The position numbers and the translations under genes were made by a program. Under the pieces are notes generated by a model that did no database searches, was not told the DNA's origin, and saw nothing but the letters and a program-made list of their open reading frames with translations. A stretch of 64,000 nucleotides of DNA, from the sequence record OR983333.1; one strand, 5' to 3'. This document shows, one piece after another, positions 25,836 through 55,060 of this stretch (positions are counted from its first letter, which is position 1; the number at the start of each line of letters is the position of its first letter). This DNA comes from Escherichia phage 1-6af.

Positions 25836-26678
25836 TTACCAAGATTTATCTAACCATGTCCAGTCGAACAGGTCTTCCGGAGCCTGACCAACAAAGAGCA
25901 GCCGAGCATTCTCAAGCATCTTCTCTTCATCTTCAGTATCGAACTTCTTATAGTATTCCATTCGTACTATATGATACATGGTCCACTTATCTGTAACACC
26001 AGCCAACAATTTAGCTGCTGCCTTCTTCCCTATTCCTTGACGTCGAAGCTGAAGCTTACCGCCCCACATAACTTCTTTACGTTCCCCACATCCGGGGATA
26101 TTATCCGTACCATCTCCAATCAACATTTGATAGAAGAAGTTTTGCCATGAGACTAAATCGGATACATAGTGAGGAGGAACTTCTTTCTGTCTTTCTCCAC
26201 AAGCCCAGCGATAATGCCATCCGGGAGTTATCAACAAATCCTTGTCTCTAGTACAGATGATAGTATTCTTATCCCTACGTTGTCTTTCAGCTAGTGCATC
26301 ATCAGCTTCTCTCCCAAAGACCTCAATGTATTCGTACTTGGCTTTAATGTAATCACCAACGTTTTGCCAGTGAAAAGGTCTTTCTCCGGGAGGTCTGTTT
26401 GCCTTGTAGTCTTGCTGCTTAGCAACATCAAAACGGAAGTTACCGCCTTCGCTGAAGTAGAACACAACCTTACTGCAACCTGAGCGAGCAATGATTGTAT
26501 CTATCTTGTACTGAAGTCGTTCAATCATGAAATTGTAATCAACTGGAACACGTCCTGTGTCAAGAAAGGGATGCTCCTGAGTAAGAGCACCCACTTCATA
26601 TCGAAGAACGTCAGCATCCACTATAGCAACTTCAGGGAGCTTAACTTCTTCCATAAATATCATCCTGAGCTTGAGCAA
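25836..26678 (-). CDS. 5'-3' exonuclease / flap endonuclease
   Basis: H3TH-like GIGKKAAAKLL motif; sits with T7-like replication genes. Confidence 0.55.
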   Translation of the reverse strand: MLKLRMIFMEEVKLPEVAIVDADVLRYEVGALTQEHPFLDTGRVPVDYNFMIERLQYKIDTIIARSGCSKVVFYFSEGGNFRFDVAKQQDYKANRPPGERPFHWQNVGDYIKAKYEYIEVFGREADDALAERQRRDKNTIICTRDKDLLITPGWHYRWACGERQKEVPPHYVSDLVSWQNFFYQMLIGDGTDNIPGCGERKEVMWGGKLQLRRQGIGKKAAAKLLAGVTDKWTMYHIVRMEYYKKFDTEDEEKMLENARLLFVGQAPEDLFDWTWLDKSW

Positions 26679-33311: not shown

Positions 33312-33503
33312 TCACTCTGCCAATGCAGGTATCTCTAATCTCTTAATTGTGAATGCTTTGTCTGGAAACTTTCGAACTAGCTCCGCTGCTTTGCTAATTG
33401 CTAAGTTCTCTGTTTCAAAGATACAGAATTGACTATTCAGCGCGGTAATAGTGGAGCCACCACTGAAGATGGCCCAAGATTTATAATAATCACGAACACT
33501 CAT
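33312..33503 (-). CDS. hypothetical protein (63 aa)
   Basis: ORF immediately downstream of polymerase exon 2. Confidence 0.3.
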   Translation of the reverse strand: MSVRDYYKSWAIFSGGSTITALNSQFCIFETENLAISKAAELVRKFPDKAFTIKRLEIPALAE

Positions 33504-33511
33504 AACCCACC

Positions 33512-33664
33512 TTAGTGCGTATGCATCCAGTTAAGTCCAATCTGACAATCAGATGCCAGAGGACATTCCATGTTCAAGTACTCACCAGCTTTCTTAACGC
33601 AAAGCTCAGTGTGCTCTTTGAGTTTCTGTACATCGTTACGATTAACTGAGAACTGGCCCTCATC
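33512..33664 (-). CDS. DNA polymerase (family A, T7 gp5-like) exon 2: DEGQF...GLNWMHTH
   Basis: Encodes the D-E of the HDE motif and a T7-like C-terminus (..NW...H); preceded by in-frame TAA; not in ORF track (<60 aa). Confidence 0.6.
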   Translation of the reverse strand, partial: DEGQFSVNRNDVQKLKEHTELCVKKAGEYLNMECPLASDCQIGLNWMHTH

Positions 33665-34271
33665 CATTTATGTTATTCCCAAATTACTTCGGGTATCGGA
33701 CTATATCATAACAGCATAGCTAATTTGCTGTTGTTGGCGCTTCGAGGGTTTCCCTGTTAACCCCCTACTCCCGCAGGATAGTCTCTACACTTTCCACTTT
33801 CGAATCCATCTACAAGCGATTCCAAAGCTCACACCAAACCTTTCTGCAAGAGCAACACCAGTGCATTCATTGTTAAGCCAGAACTCTTTAGCAGCATTCT
33901 GTCTTTCTCTGTTTCTGCCAGTGTTTGACTCGATAGCATGTGCACTACCTTCTAAGATTTCTAGATGGTCAGTATTGCAACAAGCTCTATTCTTGCATTT
34001 ATGGTTAACTTCATAACCGTCAGGGATGTTTCCAAATTTCTCTTCCATGACGTATCTGTGATACATGACCCATTTGCCATTTATCATTTTTCGAAAGTAA
34101 CCATCTTTATTTAGTTTGTGTGAGATAGGGATGATACATCCTGTGCTAGTTGTTTCTAGCACTAGATCTTTCTTAGCCATATCACCTCCTAATAGCTTAG
34201 CTCGGTATTGCCCTCAACTTAATGGTCGGGTTTCACCGAGTTCACCAACTTTTACATGCACAATGAAGTTT
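33665..34271 (-). mobile_element. putative group I intron in DNA polymerase gene
   Basis: 607 nt splitting the catalytic motif MH|DE; exon 1 ends in U, intron ends in G; contains HNH ORF. Confidence 0.5.
33785..34180 (-). CDS. intron-encoded HNH endonuclease
   Basis: VNHKCKNRACCNTDHLE zinc-HNH motif; lies within the polymerase gene interruption. Confidence 0.75.
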   Translation of the reverse strand: MAKKDLVLETTSTGCIIPISHKLNKDGYFRKMINGKWVMYHRYVMEEKFGNIPDGYEVNHKCKNRACCNTDHLEILEGSAHAIESNTGRNRERQNAAKEFWLNNECTGVALAERFGVSFGIACRWIRKWKV

Positions 34272-35963
34272 ATGCATATCAATTACCTTAGCACAACGAA
34301 CCCCATCCCTCTCAATCCACTTGTTAAGGAACATCATAGCATATTTCATAACAACAGCACCAGCACATTGCAGGAGTGTGTTAAGGGCTTTATGAACCAT
34401 AACTTTACCAGTGGCATCTCGTCTCATTGTAATCTTACGACCATCAACACCAATCAAGTATCCTTGAGCAGCCTTTTCTGTCATACGATCAATGAGGATT
34501 GCAATACATGGGTTCTCTGCCAAGAAACGTGCTCGCATCACTGAACCTTCGTCAGCCCCACCACCTACAATTGAACCAAGCTTAGCATCGCCAGCACCGT
34601 AGTTGAATGCATAGATAAACGTTTTAGCGTTGTCACGAGTAGGAAGACCAGCAAGTTTCTGGTTGTGGGAGTGGATATCACCTTCAAGGAGAATATCACG
34701 ATACATAATAGCAGAAGCTAAACCACGTTCTGCCAGAGCTTTCTTAGCTGGGTTGTTCTCTTCAATTGCCTCAGCAAGCATATCCCTACACTCTTTAATG
34801 AGGTAGTGAGCGAGCATACGAAGTTCAAGCCCAGAACCATCATACCCTAAGAATACTTCTTTACCAGCGGGTATGTAATATTTGTAAGCACCTACAGGTT
34901 TGTCTTTCTTCCCCGGTTTACCTTTCTCATAAATTACGTTAGTACCTTTTCGTATATAACAACCATCAGGAACAACGTTAGTAATAACGAAAGGACGAGA
35001 ATGATCACTGTCTGAGTTATAGTCAGACTCAAACAAACTGCGACACTCGTGACCAAACAAACCACGGGAGGGAATATTAACCACGATACGATGTTTGAAT
35101 CGAAAAGTCGGCGTAGCGCAGCTGTTAGCTTCTGCCGAAAGTTTACCATCTTCGCGTTCCTTTGCTATGAGTCCACTGATAAGACCTAGCCTGTGAGCCG
35201 CTACAACGCGTCTCTTAAGCAAACTTCCGACACTCCCTAGCTCACCCCCTAACCCTTCTTCAAGAGTCTCCTCGAGGTTTGTAGGAGCTGTAGGCCACTT
35301 GTTTGAAGTGGCTAGTGCTTTCTTAATCTCATCAAACGTTACAGGATTACGTCGATTCGGGTTTAATCCCAAACCAAACACGTAAGCCTTCATATAGTTC
35401 TTAGTTTTAAACCTAAAATGCTTTTCTAAGAACTTCTTAATATCAGCGTCAACCATCTCGGCTGTCTGCTTCTGCTTAGCATTTCCTCGCATCCAAGCAG
35501 TATACCATGCTTGGTATGTTCCATACTTTCTCATATCTTTCTTAATTTCGAAAGTATTCCAAGGCTTCTTAGATACGTTAAACTCTGGAGGAAGAAAGCC
35601 CTCATCCATAAGAGCTTCTTTAACTCGTGCATCTTTCGATGGGTCAAAGTCTACGTATTCGACACAGGTGAAAGCTCCACCAATGTCTTCTCTCTTCAGC
35701 CCAACTCTATCACAATAGGCTTGAGGCCACTTCTGCAAAGCTCCAGACTTCTTAAACGGCTTCATATAAGTAGAGCCATCTAATCTCATCTTAGGTAAGA
35801 GAGGAATCAACTCTCTGTCAATATTAACAATAATCTCTTTAAGGAGGTGAACATACCACCGAGCATTTCTTCGGTTGAAACTCACTCCGTGCTTTGCTTG
35901 CTTAGAGATTATATCAGCGACAGTCATCTCTGTCAAAAATGGAAGAGCGTCCGGGTTGCTCAC
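34272..35963 (-). CDS. DNA polymerase polymerase-domain (T7 gp5-like) exon 1
   Basis: DGSGLELR, GDIHSHN, LPTRDNAKTFIY, YGAGD, ALNTLLQCAG blocks match the T7 DNA polymerase palm/fingers. Confidence 0.8.
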
Positions 35964-35979
35964 TTTATACTCCTTTAAA

Positions 35980-37253: not shown

Positions 37254-37571
37254 TTATGATGAGCTTAAAGCTCCTTTGCGTGCTCCAGCTGCTTTTCCAG
37301 CTCGATCACCACTTTTGCCGCCGTTTGAACGGTTTGAGCTGACTGATTCAACACGTAAGTTGCTTGACGCATTAGAACCTCCAGACTTGACAGCTCGTTT
37401 GTGTCCAACGTCTTTACCTCTGACAGCAGCTTTTCCATCGCGCTTTTCAACGATGCGACGTGCACGGTGGCGCTGAGCATCTCCGCTCTTGCTCCCAATT
37501 CCCGTTTCACCGCGCTTGATCGCAGTCCTTCTTTCTTGTGCATAATCTCTTTTTCCTACATGATCTGCCAT
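37254..37571 (-). CDS. highly basic Gly/Ser/Arg/Lys-rich protein (105 aa)
   Basis: Perfect RBS aggaga 6 nt before ATG 37571; overlaps two other open frames. Confidence 0.4.
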   Translation of the reverse strand: MADHVGKRDYAQERRTAIKRGETGIGSKSGDAQRHRARRIVEKRDGKAAVRGKDVGHKRAVKSGGSNASSNLRVESVSSNRSNGGKSGDRAGKAAGARKGALSSS

Positions 37572-37900
37572 TAGATTTCTCCTGATTCTCTTTGATTAAA
37601 GGTGTGGATGGCGTGGCAATTAGCACACAATATCCTGCACTTCCTCATCTCTTCTTTTACTTGAGATAAAGATCTGGTGTGCCCTTTGGAGAGTTCGAAT
37701 GACTTAGTTAATGGATTTAAATGATCAAACTGAAGAGCAGATGCGTGGCCCTTAAAGCCACACTCAGAGCATCCATAGAATGTTTTAACTCTACGAATAA
37801 AAGCTAGTTGCCTAACTCTTCTTCTCTCGTTATCTGCCTTTCTCTTATCTCTATTTCCTGGGTCGGCCCATCTACACGAGTCATTGCAAAACCTCTGCAT
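37571..37900 (-). CDS. HNH endonuclease
   Basis: CSECGF...QFDHLNP...CANCH motif. Confidence 0.6.
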   Translation of the reverse strand: MQRFCNDSCRWADPGNRDKRKADNERRRVRQLAFIRRVKTFYGCSECGFKGHASALQFDHLNPLTKSFELSKGHTRSLSQVKEEMRKCRILCANCHAIHTFNQRESGEI

Positions 37901-39377: not shown

Positions 39378-39578
39378 TTACCACAATGTCCATTCAGTAA
39401 GGGACCACAGAGAGTCCCCTATGTGGGTGTTGTCATGTCGGATGAGATCTTTGATTTTATCAACATCAGTCAAGTGAGTTACATTCAAGATATCCTCAAC
39501 ATCTGGAACATGTTTGAATATGGCAACAATGTTATTACCATCATCAGAAAACTCCTCAAGCACATAAACTACACTCAT
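39378..39578 (-). CDS. hypothetical acidic protein (66 aa)
   Basis: ORF in leftward operon. Confidence 0.3.
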   Translation of the reverse strand: MSVVYVLEEFSDDGNNIVAIFKHVPDVEDILNVTHLTDVDKIKDLIRHDNTHIGDSLWSLTEWTLW

Positions 39579-39898
39579 GCGACATTAGCCTCTTTATGAA
39601 GTCTATAAATAGCTGTCGCCATGCAAGCAACAGCCTCGTTGTGTGGGAGGTGCATCCCTGTAGAACCATCCCAATCTTTGAACTCACTGTCAAAGACTCC
39701 GGTAGGCTCTGGATACAGAGCTTGCAGCTCCACTAGATCGTTAGCAACTTGTTGCCATTTATCGTCAGACCAGATAGGGTCATCCAACCAGTAATACAAA
39801 TAGGAATGGATGATCAATTGCCTTCTGTGCCGATTAATTACTTCAGCGGGACTTATCTCACTTCCATTTGAAGTCCTAAATGTATTACTGTCAATCAT
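39575..39898 (-). CDS. hypothetical protein; weak resemblance to NAD-dependent DNA ligase N-terminal Ia domain
   Basis: HSYLYY..DDP.WSD...W..L...L..LYPE pattern; tentative. Confidence 0.25.
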   Translation of the reverse strand: MIDSNTFRTSNGSEISPAEVINRHRRQLIIHSYLYYWLDDPIWSDDKWQQVANDLVELQALYPEPTGVFDSEFKDWDGSTGMHLPHNEAVACMATAIYRLHKEANVA

Positions 39899-42971: not shown

Positions 42972-43442
42972 CTAGGAGTTTTGCCTCTTCAAGAGTTTTA
43001 CTCCATACACAGACTCACGTTTACCATCTTTTTGAACAGATACACAGAACGTCCCGCCCTTCTCTTGGTAGACATTCTTAACTCCTAGCTTGTTATCAAC
43101 CCTTGTCTTAGCATTCTGACTGTTCTCAGAGTGAGAGCACTTTCTCAGGTTAGTTTCTTCTAGGTTTTCTCTGTTACCATCGGCATGATCTATTTGATAT
43201 TCATCCGATAAATCCTCACCAGTATAAAGAACAAAAAGAATCCTATGATTATGGACACGAACTCCTCCTAAGGGAATTTGATAATACCCATCTTTTGTGA
43301 GCTTGCCATCAGGTTTACCTACTATATCATTAGCAAACTTACTAGGCTTCCTTTTCCAAGAAAGCCCTGAAGGGGATGACATGTCTATATTAAAGAGATC
43401 AACTACTTCATCATAGCATATCAGCATGATTTGTTCCACCAA
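42972..43442 (-). CDS. HNH homing endonuclease
   Basis: GVRVHNHRILF...QIDHADGNRENLEETNLRKCSHSEN HNH_3-type motif. Confidence 0.7.
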   Translation of the reverse strand: MVEQIMLICYDEVVDLFNIDMSSPSGLSWKRKPSKFANDIVGKPDGKLTKDGYYQIPLGGVRVHNHRILFVLYTGEDLSDEYQIDHADGNRENLEETNLRKCSHSENSQNAKTRVDNKLGVKNVYQEKGGTFCVSVQKDGKRESVYGVKLLKRQNS

Positions 43443-43974: not shown

Positions 43975-45288
43975 TTAGTTATTTGTTTCCATGTCAAAAG
44001 AGATTCCACGACCCGCTTCATCGGCAAACCGAACTGTACGGGTTTGAGGTTCTAATACTTCAGGGTTGTTGGCAATAAAGCGATCAGCGAGATTATCTAC
44101 CACATCTTGGGCCACACCTTCATCAGTCCACACAGCCCTAACAGGTGCGTTGATATCACCAACAGCAAAACCCTGACCAGAGAACTGGTGACGGCTAACA
44201 GTCAAGCCGTTTGATCGACCACGAGAAGGACTAGACATCCATTGCTCCATAGAATCACTTGTAATACCAAGAGCTTCTTCAAAAGATGTTCTACGAGAAG
44301 AGCTTAGATTTCGTGCTTCATTTGCTCGACGTCTTGTAGGGGCTACAAACACCCCTTCAATTGCATTGTGTCGGTTAGGTTCGTCTTCTCTACCAAGCAG
44401 ATCACCACCTGTATTAGTTGTTAAATTTGTCAACCCTTCAGACCAATACGCATGAATCTGACCGGAACCGTGAAGACTAGACATAATCTGAATCTCTTCA
44501 TAAGGGATTCCAAAAAATCGACTCATGTCTCGGTTAACACAATATAGAGCACTTGTTGTATCCTCAATAAGAGCAACCTGACCTATTTCATTAACAAGAT
44601 GACTGACTGGCTGAGGTGTAGGAAGGTATCGAGTTTGGGCCATATATTGATATGCAACAGATGGGGCTGAGAATCTTAACACTTGTGAATTAGGCCACTT
44701 TTTGTGAACGTATCTGATTTCACGACTAGAAACAACCACAGGGCAAGGGGCGGTCATAGCTAAATACCCATGAGGGGTCATGAATAAGTTGTCAAGAGTC
44801 ATCGCACCACGGCACATCATAGGAAAGTTATCCAATACCTCTTCGATAGAAGTAGGATAATTAAACATGAATTGGATACGAACCCCATTCCACTGAAACT
44901 CAATAATATCAGTGAATGTTAATTGAGAACCCCCAGCATAGGATTCGTTTGTAGCTTCAGCAAGAAGAGATGAATACTCAATATCTTGAGACTCAAGCCA
45001 CTCTTTAACGTTACTTTCAACTTCTCGTCCGAGATCTTGCCACTGCTCATGACGGATGAAAGTATTTCGAGTTCTTGGGGCCTGTCCTCTGACAATAAAG
45101 ATATCAATGTCATGCGGAGCTGTGTTATTAAGCACAGCATCACGAATAGCCCCACCAGTGATGATAGGACAAATACAGTCTGGAATCAAGTTGTTGTTAA
45201 TCAGCTGTTCAATGAAGTGACGACCAACAGTGATATCCGGTTGTTGAGCAACCTTATCTTCAATTCGGTTAATCGGGATAACAATCAT
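43975..45288 (-). CDS. CCA-adding/poly(A)-polymerase-type nucleotidyltransferase with long C-terminal extension
   Basis: ITGGAIRDAVL...HDIDIFI head-domain signature; start taken at ATG 45288 abutting exo gene stop. Confidence 0.5.
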   Translation of the reverse strand: MIVIPINRIEDKVAQQPDITVGRHFIEQLINNNLIPDCICPIITGGAIRDAVLNNTAPHDIDIFIVRGQAPRTRNTFIRHEQWQDLGREVESNVKEWLESQDIEYSSLLAEATNESYAGGSQLTFTDIIEFQWNGVRIQFMFNYPTSIEEVLDNFPMMCRGAMTLDNLFMTPHGYLAMTAPCPVVVSSREIRYVHKKWPNSQVLRFSAPSVAYQYMAQTRYLPTPQPVSHLVNEIGQVALIEDTTSALYCVNRDMSRFFGIPYEEIQIMSSLHGSGQIHAYWSEGLTNLTTNTGGDLLGREDEPNRHNAIEGVFVAPTRRRANEARNLSSSRRTSFEEALGITSDSMEQWMSSPSRGRSNGLTVSRHQFSGQGFAVGDINAPVRAVWTDEGVAQDVVDNLADRFIANNPEVLEPQTRTVRFADEAGRGISFDMETNN

Positions 45289-45289
45289 T

Positions 45290-45847
45290 TTACATTTTCC
45301 AATATAATGAAGGTGGGTCGTAAGGGTCAAATCCTGTGATTTCACACAAGAAAAGATAAACCTTAACAGTTAAGTTAACGTCCTGTTCACAATAAGTAAA
45401 CATATCTTCAGTGAAAGCATCCCATGCTTCCTCTTGCTCACCATAATCGCCCTTAAGTTCTCCTAAGAACTCACCCCACTGCTTCAAACCATGACCCCTT
45501 GGGCCACGTCTAGGGTCGCCTTTCGGATACTCAGGACTGTCACCAATACGGTCAGGTTTAAGATATCGACTAAGACATAAAGTGTCAAAGACGTTAAAAT
45601 TATATTTAATCAAAGAGGGATACATCTTCTTCAGAGCAGGTAAGTCGAAGTCAATAATATTATGACCCACGAGCACATCTGCTTCTGTCAGTTTACGAAT
45701 CCCGTCTTCGATTTGGTGAGGCCGATAGCCCCACCTTTCACCAGTTTCAACATCGAAGATATAAATACACCATACTTTAGTTATGTCATCGTACAGTGCA
45801 TTACTCTCGATATCGAATGCAAACACTTTCTTCTTTTTCTTTACCAC
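45290..45847 (-). CDS. DNA polymerase 3'-5' exonuclease domain (T7 gp5 N-terminal-like), separate gene
   Basis: [44 protein letters not shown] blocks align to T7 gp5 residues 1-190. Confidence 0.75.
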
Positions 45848-47631
45848 GGTGAAGCTCCATCTGCTTGGTTGACGAGAGAAGCTGCATCCTCTCCATTAGT
45901 TAAAACGAATGGATTATCTTCATCAACTTCAAAGTCTTCCCTCTCTACAAGTCTACCGGTTTCACTGATATACTTAGTATAACAGACACCTGTCTGACCG
46001 TAGTTGCGTTCTTTCAGTAATCGAATGACTGAGAGGTTCTTAGCTAAGCCGTCAGCTTGCTTGTCACGCTCAAAACCAATGATACACTGACACCAACGCA
46101 TAAGAGAACGAGAGCCAGTGAACTGCACTTCACGTACCTGTCCACCTTCTTCATGAGGAGCACCACCTGCCGGAGCATTAAGGTGAGATAACACGAAAGC
46201 GGTAAAGTCTAGTTCTTTACACATACCAGCAAGCTCGGAAGCAATCTTACTGATTTCAGTGTTAATCTCTGAAGGGGTTAAATGAGACACCAGAGCGGTA
46301 ATGTTATCAAGGATGATGAACTTACACTGGTTTTCAACTACCCAGAAACGAATACACTGTTTAATGTCTTCCCACTCATTCTGTCCGAAGTTGTCATACA
46401 AGAAGAATTTGTCTGCATAACGAAGTGCTTCATTACGCAAATCCTCCTCATCATATTCAACATCGGGTCGGTGGAAAGGAATTGATGCTGACTTACCAGC
46501 AATGTTCTTAACAGACATGCCTACCTTCTCTTCCAAGAAGAAGCCACCTCCATTAAAACCATGCTCTAAGCACAGATGAGCAACCAGCTCGTGAGCAATG
46601 AGTGTTTTACCACTACCAACCCCACCACCAATTGCTACCACCTCTCCCCATCGAATACCGAAGGTCATCTCATTCAGAGTCTTCCACGGATATGGGATAC
46701 CCCACTCCGCTTTCTTCAGAGCATCATCAAGGCAATCAAAGATTGTTACAGCTCCAGCAGGAGATTCCCGCTTTGCTGAATACTTGAGAATGTTGAATAA
46801 CTCTTGACCACGACCAGACAGAAGCATATCATTCGCATCCTTAATCTCTTTCTCCACACCGTTGTATGGGAAGGTTCCTTTAGGGATACGAGCAAACTTG
46901 ACATGAGGGAATAAAGAACGACCTTTTGTTAAAGCTATCTCACCTGCATCATCGTTGTCCATGCAGAGCACAACCTCCTCAAAACCATTTACGAAGTCTC
47001 GATTACGAGACAACACAGAAGAGATTGAACCTGCACCGAACGGTAAAGAAACACAGGCTGGTTTAATGTTTGTTGCATTTGTAAAAGCTGTAAGGACATG
47101 GAAACCAGACATACAAGATAGCGGGTCTTCAAAAATGAAGAGCTTCTTGTTGTACACATCTCCACGTTGAGCTTGTGCCATACCAAATAAATCTGCTTCT
47201 TTCACACTGCCGACATAATAAAACTTCTTATTATCTAGCAGCTTAACCTCGTAACCAACAATGTTTCCATCACGTTCGCGAGGAAAGAAGTAGCTGTCTG
47301 GAGTCTGACCGTCAGTTTGACTGAGGCCAATACGACACTCAAAACGCTCTGATACAGCTTTTGGGATTAAACGTCGAGTAAGCTCTCCCTGAGGAAGCTC
47401 TAAGCAATCATCTAAGACTTCTCTCAACTCTTCAGGGGATAACTCTTTTCTCTCGTTTGGAGTAGGTGTAGTGCCCTTTTCGAACACTTCGTAATTCCCA
47501 CAACGGTTACAACTTCCCCACTCCTCACCTGTCTCTTCGTTACGGAAGAGAATCATGTGGTTGTGGGTTTTATCACGACCATGAGAGATACATTCCTTAC
47601 AACCTGTGTCTCCCAAAATGATCTTTGACAT
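45841..47631 (-). CDS. primase-helicase (T7 gp4-like)
   Basis: N-terminal Cys4 zinc finger, TOPRIM-like region, Walker [10 protein letters not shown]. Confidence 0.8.
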
Positions 47632-50416: not shown

Positions 50417-52443
50417 TTAACCTCTATTCAATGAACATTTAGGAGAATTACAATAAACTTGATTCATAGAACCAAGCGTACAACTTTCAGCATCGCGCCA
50501 CGGAATCTGCTTAAAACACTCTGAGCAGTATCCAAGGGTTGACCACATGGCTTTGGTGAAGTCAGTGCTTCGGTTTCCGTCGAAGCTGACAACAGTTTTG
50601 CGGAGAGTTGTTCGTGATTCAGGAAACACACCTGCTTTCTCAGCAGGTTCCTCCTTTTTTGGCTTAGTTGAGATTGCAAAAATACTGTTGCTACGTTTCT
50701 CAACATAAGCATCAACAACATCCTCCAGAGTGATGCCTGTCTGTTTCGCTGAGGAAGGTAATACAGTCATACGACCAATCATATCTTCAGTTACACGTAA
50801 AGCAAACTCAGGACGACGGGCGTTTGTTGTATCTGTTGCTTTAATCCATACATAACCATCTTTGATCGTAGCATTAGATACTTTCTTCTTTACCTCTACA
50901 GCGCAGGCTTTACAGATATCTTCACCGCGAAGACGACTAAGTTCATCATCGAACTCATTCTCTGTTTTAACTTCACCACAGATTTCACAAACACCAATAG
51001 GAGTCTCCTCCTCTTCTTCCTCTTTAGGTTTAGTCAAACCTTCCAGACATTCAGGATGCCAGTAGCACTGATATGCGAAGACTGCTTTAGGTGCATCCTT
51101 CCAATCAATGTGTTTGTCACAACCACCACAATCACCATGAGAATGTGCTTCCCAGAATTTACGAGTGATAGTAACGCCATTCTTGTTGACGAAACTATCA
51201 TTCATGTCAAAAGGGATATCATCATCAAAGTCAGCAGTAGTAGACTCAGGCTCCTTTTTCTCCAGAGATGGGTCAACAAAACGACCTGCTGTGATCACTA
51301 AGCGAACCATAGCATTAACTTCGGAGATACAGGATACTGTCCCACGGTAAACAATTTTAGGGTCTTTCAGGGCATCCTGATAAGCCTTAATATCTACGTT
51401 ATGGACATCACCTTCGATATACTCTTGAGATTTCTCATCGTAGATATAACCAATCATCTTACCACGAGAAGGAACAGCACCAGCAGTTGCATAAGGAACA
51501 AACTCATGCGGAGTGATTTCCACAGTCATATCGCGGCGAATATCAATGTTTCGATCACTTGCGATTTTGTTTTGACTTACCACTGCGTTTCTTCGACGAA
51601 CATCTGCCGCTGTCACTCCCGGCTTCGTGTCGTAGGGATTGCTTGTACTGCTTTTTGAGGAACTTTGATAGTTGCTTTGGCTGTAGTTGTTCGAGTAATA
51701 ACTGCCCCAACGATTGGCTACCGTAAAAACCGGAAGCTCGTGGGCGACCTCTTCAACCAGAGTCATGCCGTTGTTTGACATATCAAAGATATACTCTGTA
51801 CCAACTTTACATTCAAAATGCTCGTCAATACGGTTCTTATGAGACTTAGAACGCTTCAGAATCCACATCAACATATCTTCTTCAGAAGCACCAAACCAAT
51901 CTCTGTTACAACGTGCGAGGTGGAAAGGACGCTCTTCGTTACGAATGATATGAAGGCGGTTATCAGAAGCATCATGCCAGATTAAGGTGAAAGCACCATC
52001 CAGCTTTTGAATAGTCTCTGCTGCACCGATAGTGTTAATAGAGTGGCAGATGTTCTCGCTGTCTACCTCGAAGCTTTTGCTGTCAGGTAACAGATCTTGG
52101 TCCATCAAGGTTCCATTATGAACCAGAGTGATGTTACCATGTTGGAAAGGATGGGCGTTCTTGGCGTTAACTGCACCTTTCGTTGCATGACGACTGTGAC
52201 CAACAATCCATGAAGGTGCTACAGTGTAAGCTGTTTCACCAGTGGTGTGCTTCTTGTACTCATCTTGTAGGATGAATGCGAAAGAAGGAAGAGCTTCTTT
52301 ATAAGTGAAGACTTCCTTAGTGCTTTTACGCTGACCAAAGATACCGGAGGAATGTTGTCCTCGGAATACTCCAGCATAAAAGAGTTGGTTGAATACGTCT
52401 AAATCAGTGCTTGACAGATTACCGCCAGCTAATACGATGCCAC
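50417..52443 (-). CDS. class-II (Ntn) glutamine amidotransferase-like protein with C-terminal zinc-ribbon region; frame-broken N-terminus
   Basis: CGIVLAGG ... RGQHSSGIF ... AHPF.HGNITLVHNGTL resembles PurF/AsnB N-terminal domain; needs frame change near 52376-52381 and has no canonical start at Cys codon. Confidence 0.5.
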
Positions 52444-52526
52444 AAATTTTCTAATCCACCTGAAGGGTAAACCCTTTCATCTAATTAACCTTTAAATTGT
52501 GCCCCTTTGTCAGAGGCACCCATTGA

Positions 52527-53630
52527 TTACAGCGCTTGTTCTAACTGATTTTCCAGATGGTCTGGAATGTACCCTGTGATATTGCTATCACTGTGACCTG
52601 ACTCACGTAGTAAGTCAAAAATAGCACGGATACGTTGTTCTGGAGCGTGTCTTACTTGAGATAGGTCTGCTGTACGAAGCATAACCAAAATCTCTTGATA
52701 CAAGTTGTTAGCGTTCCCTCGGACATAACCAAGGAATCCATAGAAGTCTGACATAAGACGCAAGTCAACAAGAACATCTCCGTTGGAGTTGGTTCGACGT
52801 AAACGAATACGACCAGACTGTTCTACTTCATGAGAACGACAATACAAAACATCACGGGCCATACAATAACCTGAATGCAAATCCGATTCATCCAGATTGT
52901 AATCCAGAGGAAGGTAAGGAAGCATTGGGGCAAATCGTACAGTATTTAAATGCTCAACAAACTGATCGTTGCTCATATCTGCGTTATCTAAAGCCAGCTT
53001 CTTCAGCATCAAGAAGCGGTTAACCAGATTGAGAAGTTGACCACGTTTCCACTTAGGCTCGCTGATACGGAACTCAATCGAACCGTATTGGGCAAGTGGC
53101 AGAAGGTTCAGGGATGTATACTTATCCCATGAACGAACCAGACGGTTGAAGAACTCTTCACCATCGTAGTTAAATGCGTCAGAGGCATTCATTACCTGTG
53201 CTTGTACCACTGCAAACGCAGGGCAGAAATTGCTACGGTAACGATGGTAGCCTGAGCACTTGAACAACATCTTTTCGTAGAAGGTCCAAGCGAGAATGGT
53301 TTTCTTGAGGATATTACTATCAGCATCCCTCATATCCATATGAACGTGAGTAGAGCAACGCCAAGTCCCCTCGGCGTGCGATTCAGCTACTGCTTCACTC
53401 AGGTTGTTGATAGCGTCTAACAACTCCTGTCCGTTGTAAGGTCGTGAACATACCATTTCACAACCATTACGCAGGGAACCATCCTCTGTACAATCCCACA
53501 TATCTGCTTCGATATGATCGGAACCTTCGAGTTCAAGTTCAATACCGACACCGCACTGAAGTGCAATTGAACTATGCGCCTCAGTTAAACGTCCTTCTCG
53601 ATATCCAAAAGTTTGCGCTACAGTTGTCAT
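52527..53630 (-). CDS. amidoligase-like (glutamine synthetase-like) protein
   Basis: GVGIELELEG G.E.E-type motif; gene neighbourhood with GATase and AIG2 genes. Confidence 0.4.
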   Translation of the reverse strand: MTTVAQTFGYREGRLTEAHSSIALQCGVGIELELEGSDHIEADMWDCTEDGSLRNGCEMVCSRPYNGQELLDAINNLSEAVAESHAEGTWRCSTHVHMDMRDADSNILKKTILAWTFYEKMLFKCSGYHRYRSNFCPAFAVVQAQVMNASDAFNYDGEEFFNRLVRSWDKYTSLNLLPLAQYGSIEFRISEPKWKRGQLLNLVNRFLMLKKLALDNADMSNDQFVEHLNTVRFAPMLPYLPLDYNLDESDLHSGYCMARDVLYCRSHEVEQSGRIRLRRTNSNGDVLVDLRLMSDFYGFLGYVRGNANNLYQEILVMLRTADLSQVRHAPEQRIRAIFDLLRESGHSDSNITGYIPDHLENQLEQAL

Positions 53631-54244
53631 AACGAATCCACCAACGTAATATTATAATTGCTAAGGTTTTCAGAGATGTGATGAAAATGCTCCAGAAGTC
53701 GCATCGGTTGCTGACCGTAAGAGTCACGAGGTGCTTCCAGATCTACTTGTCCTACCAGTGCACCTTTATAATGCACCTTACCATCCGTAGGGTTGATGTA
53801 AATGTAACGAGTAACCAATCCATCAAATTCAGGATTGAACAGACTGTAAACCATTTCACCAGAGATCGAACGACCAATCCCAGGAGCGTTTCGAATCTTG
53901 TTACCCATCAAACCCTTCGCTCTCTGACGAACAGGGTTGATGTGAGTCCAGCTTACAGTGTTACCGTTATGGAACAGATAACCAACATCAGGCGATTCAA
54001 GAATCAAGGTTGGGTCGAACACTGGAATATTCATCGTAGTGTTTCGAAGATTCCCTTGCTCATTCTTGTACCACTGCTCTACAACAAAGTACAAAGCCTG
54101 TTCTGCTTCGTGAGAGAAGTCATCGCTGCGGAAGTTACCGCTCTGCTCAACACCAATCACAAAACACGGAAGGTTGATATTGCCTGCCCGTTTAGCAATC
54201 CATGTACCATTATAGTAATGAGAAAAATCAGCTACTAAGCTCAC
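53627..54244 (-). CDS. hypothetical protein (205 aa)
   Basis: Translationally coupled in cassette. Confidence 0.35.
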   Translation of the reverse strand: MSLVADFSHYYNGTWIAKRAGNINLPCFVIGVEQSGNFRSDDFSHEAEQALYFVVEQWYKNEQGNLRNTTMNIPVFDPTLILESPDVGYLFHNGNTVSWTHINPVRQRAKGLMGNKIRNAPGIGRSISGEMVYSLFNPEFDGLVTRYIYINPTDGKVHYKGALVGQVDLEAPRDSYGQQPMRLLEHFHHISENLSNYNITLVDSL

Positions 54245-54253
54245 GATAACCTC

Positions 54254-55060
54254 TTATGCTACCTGAAGGAGTTTGATCTGCTGGTCAGCTTCTTTAACGT
54301 TGTTCCCGTTAATGATTTCATGAAGCTTCTCAATCGGAAGGCGAGAGTGCAATGCCATCAGAGTGGACATATCACACTGCTGAACAACCTTGTCAACCTG
54401 ATCGTAAACAAACTTACGGTTTTCACGATCACTAATCCAGAAGTTAGACAGAGAGCGGTATTCAATACCATAGTCTTTATAACGGATTGCAGATGCTTTA
54501 CCGTAGAGTTCTTTACGGCGAGTATCTTTGTCCATAATTACTGCTGGGAGAGACAGGAAGTAGTCACACAGCACACCAAGCATCATCTGAGTTTGCAAAG
54601 TGATATCCAAAGCACCAACTACACCAAGATGTACGTGACCACCGGCAGTACGAAGCCCCTTATTCTGGGAAGTCGGGGATGGGTTCTTCTGACCAGTGAA
54701 GGCGTTGAAATCAGGAGTGCACCCGAAGATGAACGCTGATTCATTAAAGGTCTTCATCTCTTCTTCAGTGAAGATGTGAGAGCTAACACCAGGAGCTGTT
54801 TCCATGTCCAGTTTGTTCAGGACATTATTGGTGAGATCAATACCACGTTGCATGTTATCGTTAAACGCTTCAAAACCGCTCTGTGGGTCAATATCAAACT
54901 CAGCCAATACGTTGTCCTCTTGGAGACGAACATCCTTAGCCAGAGCGATCTTATCGTCCTTAGAGCAGCCTAATAAACCGGCTACAGAAGTGATGATACC
55001 ATTGCTAGTACGAACAAACATTTCAGGGTCAGAGCCGATAAGGAATTTGCGCTTAGTCAT
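54254..55060 (-). CDS. hypothetical protein (268 aa)
   Basis: ORF in cassette. Confidence 0.35.
   Translation of the reverse strand: MTKRKFLIGSDPEMFVRTSNGIITSVAGLLGCSKDDKIALAKDVRLQEDNVLAEFDIDPQSGFEAFNDNMQRGIDLTNNVLNKLDMETAPGVSSHIFTEEEMKTFNESAFIFGCTPDFNAFTGQKNPSPTSQNKGLRTAGGHVHLGVVGALDITLQTQMMLGVLCDYFLSLPAVIMDKDTRRKELYGKASAIRYKDYGIEYRSLSNFWISDRENRKFVYDQVDKVVQQCDMSTLMALHSRLPIEKLHEIINGNNVKEADQQIKLLQVA

Follow-up and report, generated by a model that had tools for sequence, protein, structure and literature searches.

The exonuclease and polymerase domains of a family A DNA polymerase are encoded by separate genes, roughly 9 kb apart, in the stretch of DNA analysed here, 64,000 nt of Escherichia phage 1-6af (OR983333.1; hereafter the window). 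This split, which an earlier note on the same DNA had proposed, is real, is ordinary for the clade to which the phage belongs and was already known. As a discovery it matters little, since it has been published for phiEco32-like and LUZ24-like phages and is annotated in GenBank. The present analysis corrects the anatomy, in that the polymerase gene starts with GTG, about 24 genes intervene and motif C is broken a third time by a homing group I intron; it also recognises the family of this intron as one shared with gene 5 of T7-like phages and estimates the size of the loop that resembles the thioredoxin-binding domain (TBD) of T7 gp5. We think it likely that a Kuravirus-like coliphage replicates its DNA with this enzyme, a T7-type family A DNA polymerase whose polypeptides are translated separately.

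The window comes from a Kuravirus-like (phiEco32 group, Gordonclarkvirinae) E. coli podophage. The 15-kb region around the exonuclease and polymerase genes is 99.5% identical to Escherichia phage FH3 and 80-98% identical to about 100 other phiEco32-like coliphages. All genes across 25-64 kb are carried on the minus strand, and every window feature described below lies on that strand. The cumulative GC skew peaks at ~24-26 kb, where plus-strand structural genes give way to minus-strand genes for replication and metabolism.

The 3'-5' proofreading exonuclease subunit is a 185-aa protein (45290..45847) with a GTG start and its own stop codon. In a Pfam search its ORF matched DNA_pol_A_exo1 (PF01612) with 35.4 bits (E 1.2e-8), above the cut-off of 23.6 bits for that family, and among solved structures its best relatives are chains of T7 gp5 (E 2e-12 over residues 3-178). 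The alignment covers all three exonuclease blocks, namely Exo I (DIE), Exo II (HNxxxxD) and Exo III (YxxxD), so that the resemblance to the T7 exonuclease domain claimed in the earlier note is borne out, by profile search as well. Across ~39 stand-alone homologues with identities down to ~32%, residues D12, E14, N63, D68 and D156 never vary, and Y152 is conserved in nearly all. The protein thus carries a 3'-5' exonuclease domain with the Exo I-III carboxylates on a separate polypeptide, and the invariance of its catalytic residues over such distances indicates an active-looking exonuclease rather than a remnant.

Directly upstream of the exonuclease gene lies a T7 gp4-like primase-helicase gene (45841..47631) with matches to DnaB_C and Toprim_2. 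Its stop codon and the GTG of the exonuclease gene share 7 nt (GTGGTAA), an overlap which suggests that translation of the exonuclease may be coupled to that of the primase-helicase. Further upstream, a cluster at 50417..55060 encodes a glutamine amidotransferase, an amidoligase and a phiEco32-type COOH-NH2 ligase, and this cluster is also conserved upstream of the helicase gene in two distant relatives, the contigs L006 and L007.

The polymerase subunit is encoded in two exons. Exon 1 (34272..35963) holds codons 1-564, beginning with GTG and ending with the His codon of motif C, and exon 2 (33512..33664) holds the last 50 codons (DEGQF...WMHTH) and the stop codon; the spliced product is a 614-aa protein comprising thumb, palm and fingers. 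The earlier note had placed an ATG at 35963. The position is correct but the codon is GTG, preceded at a distance of 6 nt by the Shine-Dalgarno sequence AAGGAG (35970..35975), a predicted strong ribosome-binding site that would give the subunit its own translation initiation. At the nucleotide level, exon 1 is 98% identical to nt 1-1691 of the uninterrupted polymerase gene of phage ES17 (window positions 35963..34273) and exon 2 is 95% identical to nt 1693-1845 of the same gene (33664..33512). Just downstream of exon 2, at 33312..33503, lies a gene for a small protein of the T4 Y13H family (PF25744, E 7.8e-22).

Several comparisons place the subunit in family A. The ORF that begins at 35963 matched PF00476 with 51 bits (cut-off 34.3) and aligned to T7 gp5 with an E value of 1e-29, and exon 2 aligns to the C-terminus of T7 gp5, including HDE and the terminal His. 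By hhalign, residues 4-614 of the spliced protein correspond to residues 206-704 of T7-type gp5; because the exonuclease subunit corresponds to T7 gp5 residues ~3-200, the break lies at the boundary between the exonuclease and polymerase domains. An AlphaFold2 model of a 98%-identical polymerase has a mean pLDDT of 89.6, and a Foldseek search with this model returned T7 gp5 as the top match (E 5e-27). Motifs A (D..LE.R), B (R...K...Y..YG) and C (HDE) of family A are all present, the last being whole only once the intron is taken out, and their residues D375, E380, R382, R443, K447, Y451, Y455, H564, D565 and E566 are invariant among 40 homologues. The window enzyme does not have the canonical architecture of exonuclease and polymerase on one polypeptide and matches instead a known split variant of the family. 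Relative to T7 gp5, polymerase residues ~137-222 (~35298..35555) and ~316-369 (~34857..35018) form lineage-specific insertions, both confidently modelled, with helices at 137-218 and strands at 325-364.

The identification of the ORF at 34242..35963 as the polymerase domain, made in the earlier note, was right as to family but took exon 1 for the complete gene and missed an intron of 607 nt. This 573-aa ORF ends '...VIDMHKLHCACKSW' and runs out inside motif C, because the intron (33665..34271) interrupts the gene between the His and Asp codons of that motif (H|DE). The exon 1 ORF alone therefore lacks two catalytic residues of motif C, its Asp and its Glu, and the polymerase as a whole lies in three coding segments, namely the exonuclease gene, exon 1 and exon 2. 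The 607 bases are precisely missing from the polymerase gene of ES17. Wholly inside them is a 131-aa ORF (33785..34180) for an HNH homing endonuclease, with the HNH motif of PF13392 (HNH_3, E 7e-12). Predicted splicing would yield CAU|GAU GAG, that is ...VIDMH|DEGQF..., which restores HDE together with a C-terminus alignable to that of T7 gp5. For an active polymerase, the mRNA would have to self-splice to regain both.

We examined whether the insert has the structure of a group I intron. The Rfam model Intron_gpI (RF00028) aligned to the P7, P8 and P9 region of the insert with 26.2 bits (E 7.5e-4), which is below the gathering score of 50 bits. This low score stems from the position of the HNH ORF in the P6 region, with the 5' part of the core (the P3-P5 strands) upstream of the ORF. 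The Rfam alignment puts the intron's 5' half within the HNH ORF; we rejected this placement because P3, P4 and P5 pair and co-vary upstream of it. Since a MAFFT alignment of mini-introns from which the ORF had been removed misaligned P7.1/P3' between the Kuravirus and T7-like copies, the helices were checked directly by script. P1 is formed by the end of the 5' exon (AUGCAU) and intron GUGCAU, its last pair being a U-G at the splice site, and the intron ends with a G at position 33665. P3 (GUUGGUG/CGCCAAC), P4 (CUCGGU/ACCGAG), P5 and P7 (GACUA/UAGUC) pair in the window, and these four helices of the group I catalytic core pair in all five copies scored. P3 occurs in three fully compensated forms (GUUGGUG/CGCCAAC, UCUGGUG/CGCCAGA and CUCAUUG/CGGUGAG), and compensatory changes in both P1 and P3 are found across the Kuravirus, Vp_R1 and T7-like copies.

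The same intron is present in phages FH3, 1-6bf, PE006, PAS59, ECBP2 and SU7 but is missing from most Kuravirus genomes, including phiEco32, ES17 and YF01, in which the polymerase gene is uninterrupted. Homologous introns with 65-69% identity occur in Vibrio phage Vp_R1 and in many T7-like phages, and an ORF of 131-132 aa stands at the same place in all copies. In gene 5 of phage 13a the homologous intron interrupts the same codon position (WVH|DEIQV), and RefSeq gives the gene as a joined CDS; the homologous element is likewise annotated by a joined CDS in JeanTinguely and Bas102. In FH3 and 1-6bf, by contrast, both polymerase pieces and the intron ORF, like the exonuclease gene, are labelled 'hypothetical protein'. 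The gene 5 group I intron of T7-like phages was reportedly described for phiI/W31 by Bonocora and Shub in 2004. Compared with such gene 5 introns (e.g. that of 13a), the window intron has 65-68% nucleotide identity over 83-98% of its length, the same 131-aa HNH ORF, an insertion point that likewise follows the His codon of HDE, and the same P1-P9 core, but it resides in the gene for a polymerase-only subunit, in a lineage of phages unrelated to these. Exon and internal guide sequence have changed together, AUGCAU/GUGCAU in the window corresponding to GUGCAU/GUGCAC in 13a. One intron family at the same polymerase codon in unrelated lineages (Kuravirus-like, Vp_R1 and T7-like) amounts to homing to a conserved catalytic motif.

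A different group I intron, without an ORF, interrupts polymerase motif B in other relatives (KTFIYAFN|YGAGD; Rfam 102 bits), as in a Kuravirus-like metagenome contig (L017, 4354..4617). This second intron explains many polymerase proteins of 437-460 aa that appear 'truncated' in databases (P0079-P0082, P0145 and others). The motif B site is uninterrupted in the window.

The polymerase start at 35963 lies 9,326 bp downstream of the exonuclease stop. The interval was thought in the earlier note to hold about fourteen genes, but the number is about 24, as judged from the 24 annotated CDS in the near-identical FH3 and 25 in ES17. Among the genes named there, the dCTP deaminase, the ferritin/Dps-like protein, Thy1/ThyX and the thioredoxin were confirmed, whereas the nucleotidyltransferase (43975..45345), which directly follows the exonuclease gene, has only a weak match to the PolyA_pol head domain (E 0.0019), below the cut-off. 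The mechanically called start of this last ORF (GTG at 45345) overlaps the exonuclease gene; in relatives the protein has 437 aa and begins with an ATG within a few bases of the exonuclease stop. Other genes of the interval encode PhoH, a stand-alone ligase Ia domain and two free-standing HNH endonucleases. The ligase protein (39575..39898) is a 107-aa NAD+-binding Ia domain of DNA ligase (PF22745, E 3.8e-35) and may be a further enzyme that phages of this group encode in pieces. The HNH genes (42972..43442 and 37571..37900) differ in presence and position among FH3, ES17 and Bas90 and hence look like mobile elements that help to reshuffle the interval.

Both the split and its conservation in related phages, which the earlier note had proposed to check, are well documented. 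In a search of 5.8 billion proteins, all 65 clusters of exonuclease homologues were stand-alone proteins of 101-247 aa, and the exonuclease ORF carries the GenBank label 'DNA polymerase exonuclease subunit' in Bas90 and 7-11. Polymerase-only homologues of 545-615 aa reach as far as Pseudomonas phages of the LUZ24 type, which carry them under the name 'DNA polymerase part II'. Relatives with both domains fused are confined to Autographiviridae and to identities of ~41% or less. Neither subunit has a paralogue in the window, nor does the window contain a fused copy or a second polymerase, and the complete genomes of FH3 and 1-6bf likewise have no fused polymerase and one location each for the exonuclease and polymerase genes; a full-length polymerase gene elsewhere, which would have spoken against the split, was thus found neither in the window nor in complete close relatives. 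In L006 and L007, two of the distant relatives, the exonuclease gene directly follows that for the primase-helicase, and in a third, L003, a single small ORF comes between the two; none of these three contigs has a polymerase gene in the 3-10 kb after the exonuclease gene. An assembly artefact and a pseudogene were both rejected on the basis of gene anatomy and conservation in ~100 genomes.

How might two such polypeptides function as one enzyme? In E. coli Pol III, the polymerase (alpha) and the proofreading exonuclease (epsilon) are separate polypeptides that act together, although that polymerase belongs to family C and that exonuclease is of the DnaQ type, so Pol III offers an analogy only. 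We infer that the exonuclease and polymerase subunits of the window would re-associate non-covalently into a gp5-like enzyme, by analogy with the AlphaFold model published for the split polymerase of S-SBP1 (PMC10201439). Alternatively, the 185-aa protein might be a free-standing nuclease that is not stably bound to the polymerase and that proofreads in trans or works elsewhere, for instance in recombination or in degrading DNA, which would leave the polymerase effectively exo-minus. Such independence would suit two genes that lie 9 kb apart with separate translation signals, the exonuclease gene being linked to the helicase and not to the polymerase gene in all relatives examined. However, the helicase linkage simply reflects the ancestral gp4-gp5 order, and it is the exonuclease domain of T7 gp5 that is the closest solved relative of the protein, with the break falling exactly at the domain boundary. 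Moreover, for another split T7-like PolA an AF2 complex has been published that superimposes on a fused enzyme, and PolAs are said to need their exonuclease domain for stability (PMC10201439). It is unlikely that the exonuclease acts as an independent nuclease. Far more remote still is the idea that the two halves are joined post-translationally by a split intein or that the exonuclease ORF is a decaying remnant. Genes 'fractured' by split inteins do occur among phage replication functions (PMC2677866), but here the exonuclease fold fills its ORF and the polymerase aligns to gp5 from residue 4, so that intein halves would have no space, and the Pfam search of window ORFs matched no intein family or intein fragment. 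A remnant, for its part, would not have kept catalytic residues invariant across ~39 homologues. The anatomy of the two genes refutes both versions. Most simply, the ancestral gp4-gp5 gene order would have been broken exactly at the exonuclease/polymerase domain boundary, and the ~24 genes now in the gap, many of them for nucleotide metabolism, would have accumulated there afterwards.

Whether the thioredoxin encoded in this gap is a further component of the enzyme is a separate question. The phage protein (41033..41308) has 91 aa, a CAPC active site and a clear match to PF00085 (E 2e-13), and is a candidate processivity factor. It aligns to residues 24-107 of E. coli TrxA, including TrxA chains solved in complex with T7 gp5, and is without the first ~20 residues of TrxA. 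In T7 gp5, the TBD is a 76-aa insertion at the tip of the thumb (T7 residues 262-338). At the corresponding position by hhalign against T7-type gp5, the window polymerase has a thumb segment of ~54 aa (residues ~57-110; 35634..35795), which is ~22 aa shorter than the 76 aa of T7. A phmmer alignment of polymerase residues 64-135 to T7 residues 296-363 showed that the second half of this segment is alignable, partly to T7 296-338, and the segment is modelled with strands at 59-66 and 98-104 and a helix at 78-87. It is possible that the phage thioredoxin binds this shortened, TBD-like thumb loop. The holoenzyme would then be T7-like but made of three polypeptides, with the N-terminally truncated phage thioredoxin clamping a half-length TBD-like loop, and the polymerase insertions at ~137-222 and 316-369 might make up for the loss of the covalent link between exonuclease and polymerase. 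If this is true, the phage supplies its processivity factor itself and does not recruit the TrxA of its host. A coupling of the phage thioredoxin with the polymerase that improves processivity was proposed in 2021 (PMC7881722).

The phage thioredoxin may, on the other hand, be unrelated to the polymerase and belong to a cassette for nucleotide metabolism and redox functions (ThyX, dCTP deaminase and a Dps-like protein), any thioredoxin-dependent processivity coming from host TrxA as in T7. The gene lies between those for ThyX and the ferritin-like protein, and the TBD-like loop is shortened relative to T7. In an organism tally by tblastn, thioredoxin homologues were restricted to Kuravirus, 7-11, Privateer and GAP52-type phages, and the LUZ24-type Pseudomonas phages, which have the same split polymerase and the same conserved thumb segment, were missing from it. 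In the S-SBP1-type split polymerase, AF2 failed to dock host thioredoxin (PMC10201439). Against a purely metabolic role, however, no ribonucleotide reductase was found among window ORFs of at least 200 aa, so the classic client of a phage thioredoxin is not evident, and all C3-type podophages examined in PMC7881722 have both thioredoxin and polymerase. That part of the T7 TBD sequence can be aligned in the window polymerase also speaks for a connection. We give the metabolic explanation about an even chance. Taken together, the thioredoxin itself, the TBD-like loop, the phage distribution and the ribonucleotide reductase evidence make a thioredoxin-polymerase partnership plausible, yet the three-polypeptide holoenzyme remains a tentative proposal that we think somewhat doubtful. 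A literature search, which was not aimed at biochemical studies, returned no biochemical test of the exonuclease-polymerase complex or of a processivity role for the thioredoxin.

A further exonuclease function may be encoded elsewhere in the window. The ORF at 25836..26678 matched PF02739 with 29.8 bits, below the cut-off of 34.3, and is a candidate for a separate 5'-3' exonuclease in the role of T7 gp6 or FEN; it corresponds to the separate 5'-3' exonuclease of the phage group described in PMC9965538.

Both the exonuclease/polymerase split and the idea that a phage thioredoxin confers processivity have already been published. The polymerase was reported in 2023 to be separate from the 3'-5' and 5'-3' exonucleases in all Kuravirus-like phages and in 7-11, Privateer, Vp_R1 and BUCT695 (PMC9965538). 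Separate exonuclease and polymerase genes across the LUZ24-like group had been described and compared with phiEco32 in 2012 (PMC3517423), a paper that also reports an intron in the LUZ24 polymerase gene and through which the phiEco32 separation can be traced to a publication of 2008. The Kuravirus-like phages phiEco32, YF01, ES17, SU10 and Bas90 share with the window the same two genes, their order and the split, with polymerase subunits 98-99.8% and exonuclease subunits 97-99.5% identical, but most of them have an uninterrupted polymerase gene whereas the window has the motif C intron. The LUZ24/PaP3/tf-like Pseudomonas phages ('DNA polymerase part I / part II') have a polymerase-only subunit that is 39-42% identical to that of the window, but their genomes are smaller (~45 kb) and their polymerase subunits shorter (~545 aa).

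The S-SBP1-like cyanophages provide another split T7-like PolA (Czernecki et al. 2023, PMC10201439). As in the window, this enzyme (cluster 5) is divided at the domain boundary and has a shortened TBD, and the AF2 complex predicts that association of the parts is kept. The two S-SBP1 genes, however, are adjacent and result from a recent 1-nt frameshift, whereas the window genes are separated by 9.3 kb and ~24 genes, and the window type of split is shared by homologues down to ~34% identity, which indicates that it is old. T7 gp5 with its bound thioredoxin is the closest solved structure for both window subunits. The two systems have in common a gp4-like helicase upstream, a polymerase segment at the position of the TBD and the residues T7 Tyr526 and Tyr530, which correspond to Y451 and Y455 of the window polymerase. 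They differ in that T7 gp5 is a single chain of 704 aa with host thioredoxin and a 76-aa TBD, whereas the window encodes two chains, a TBD-like loop of ~54 aa, extra insertions in the polymerase and a 91-aa thioredoxin of its own.
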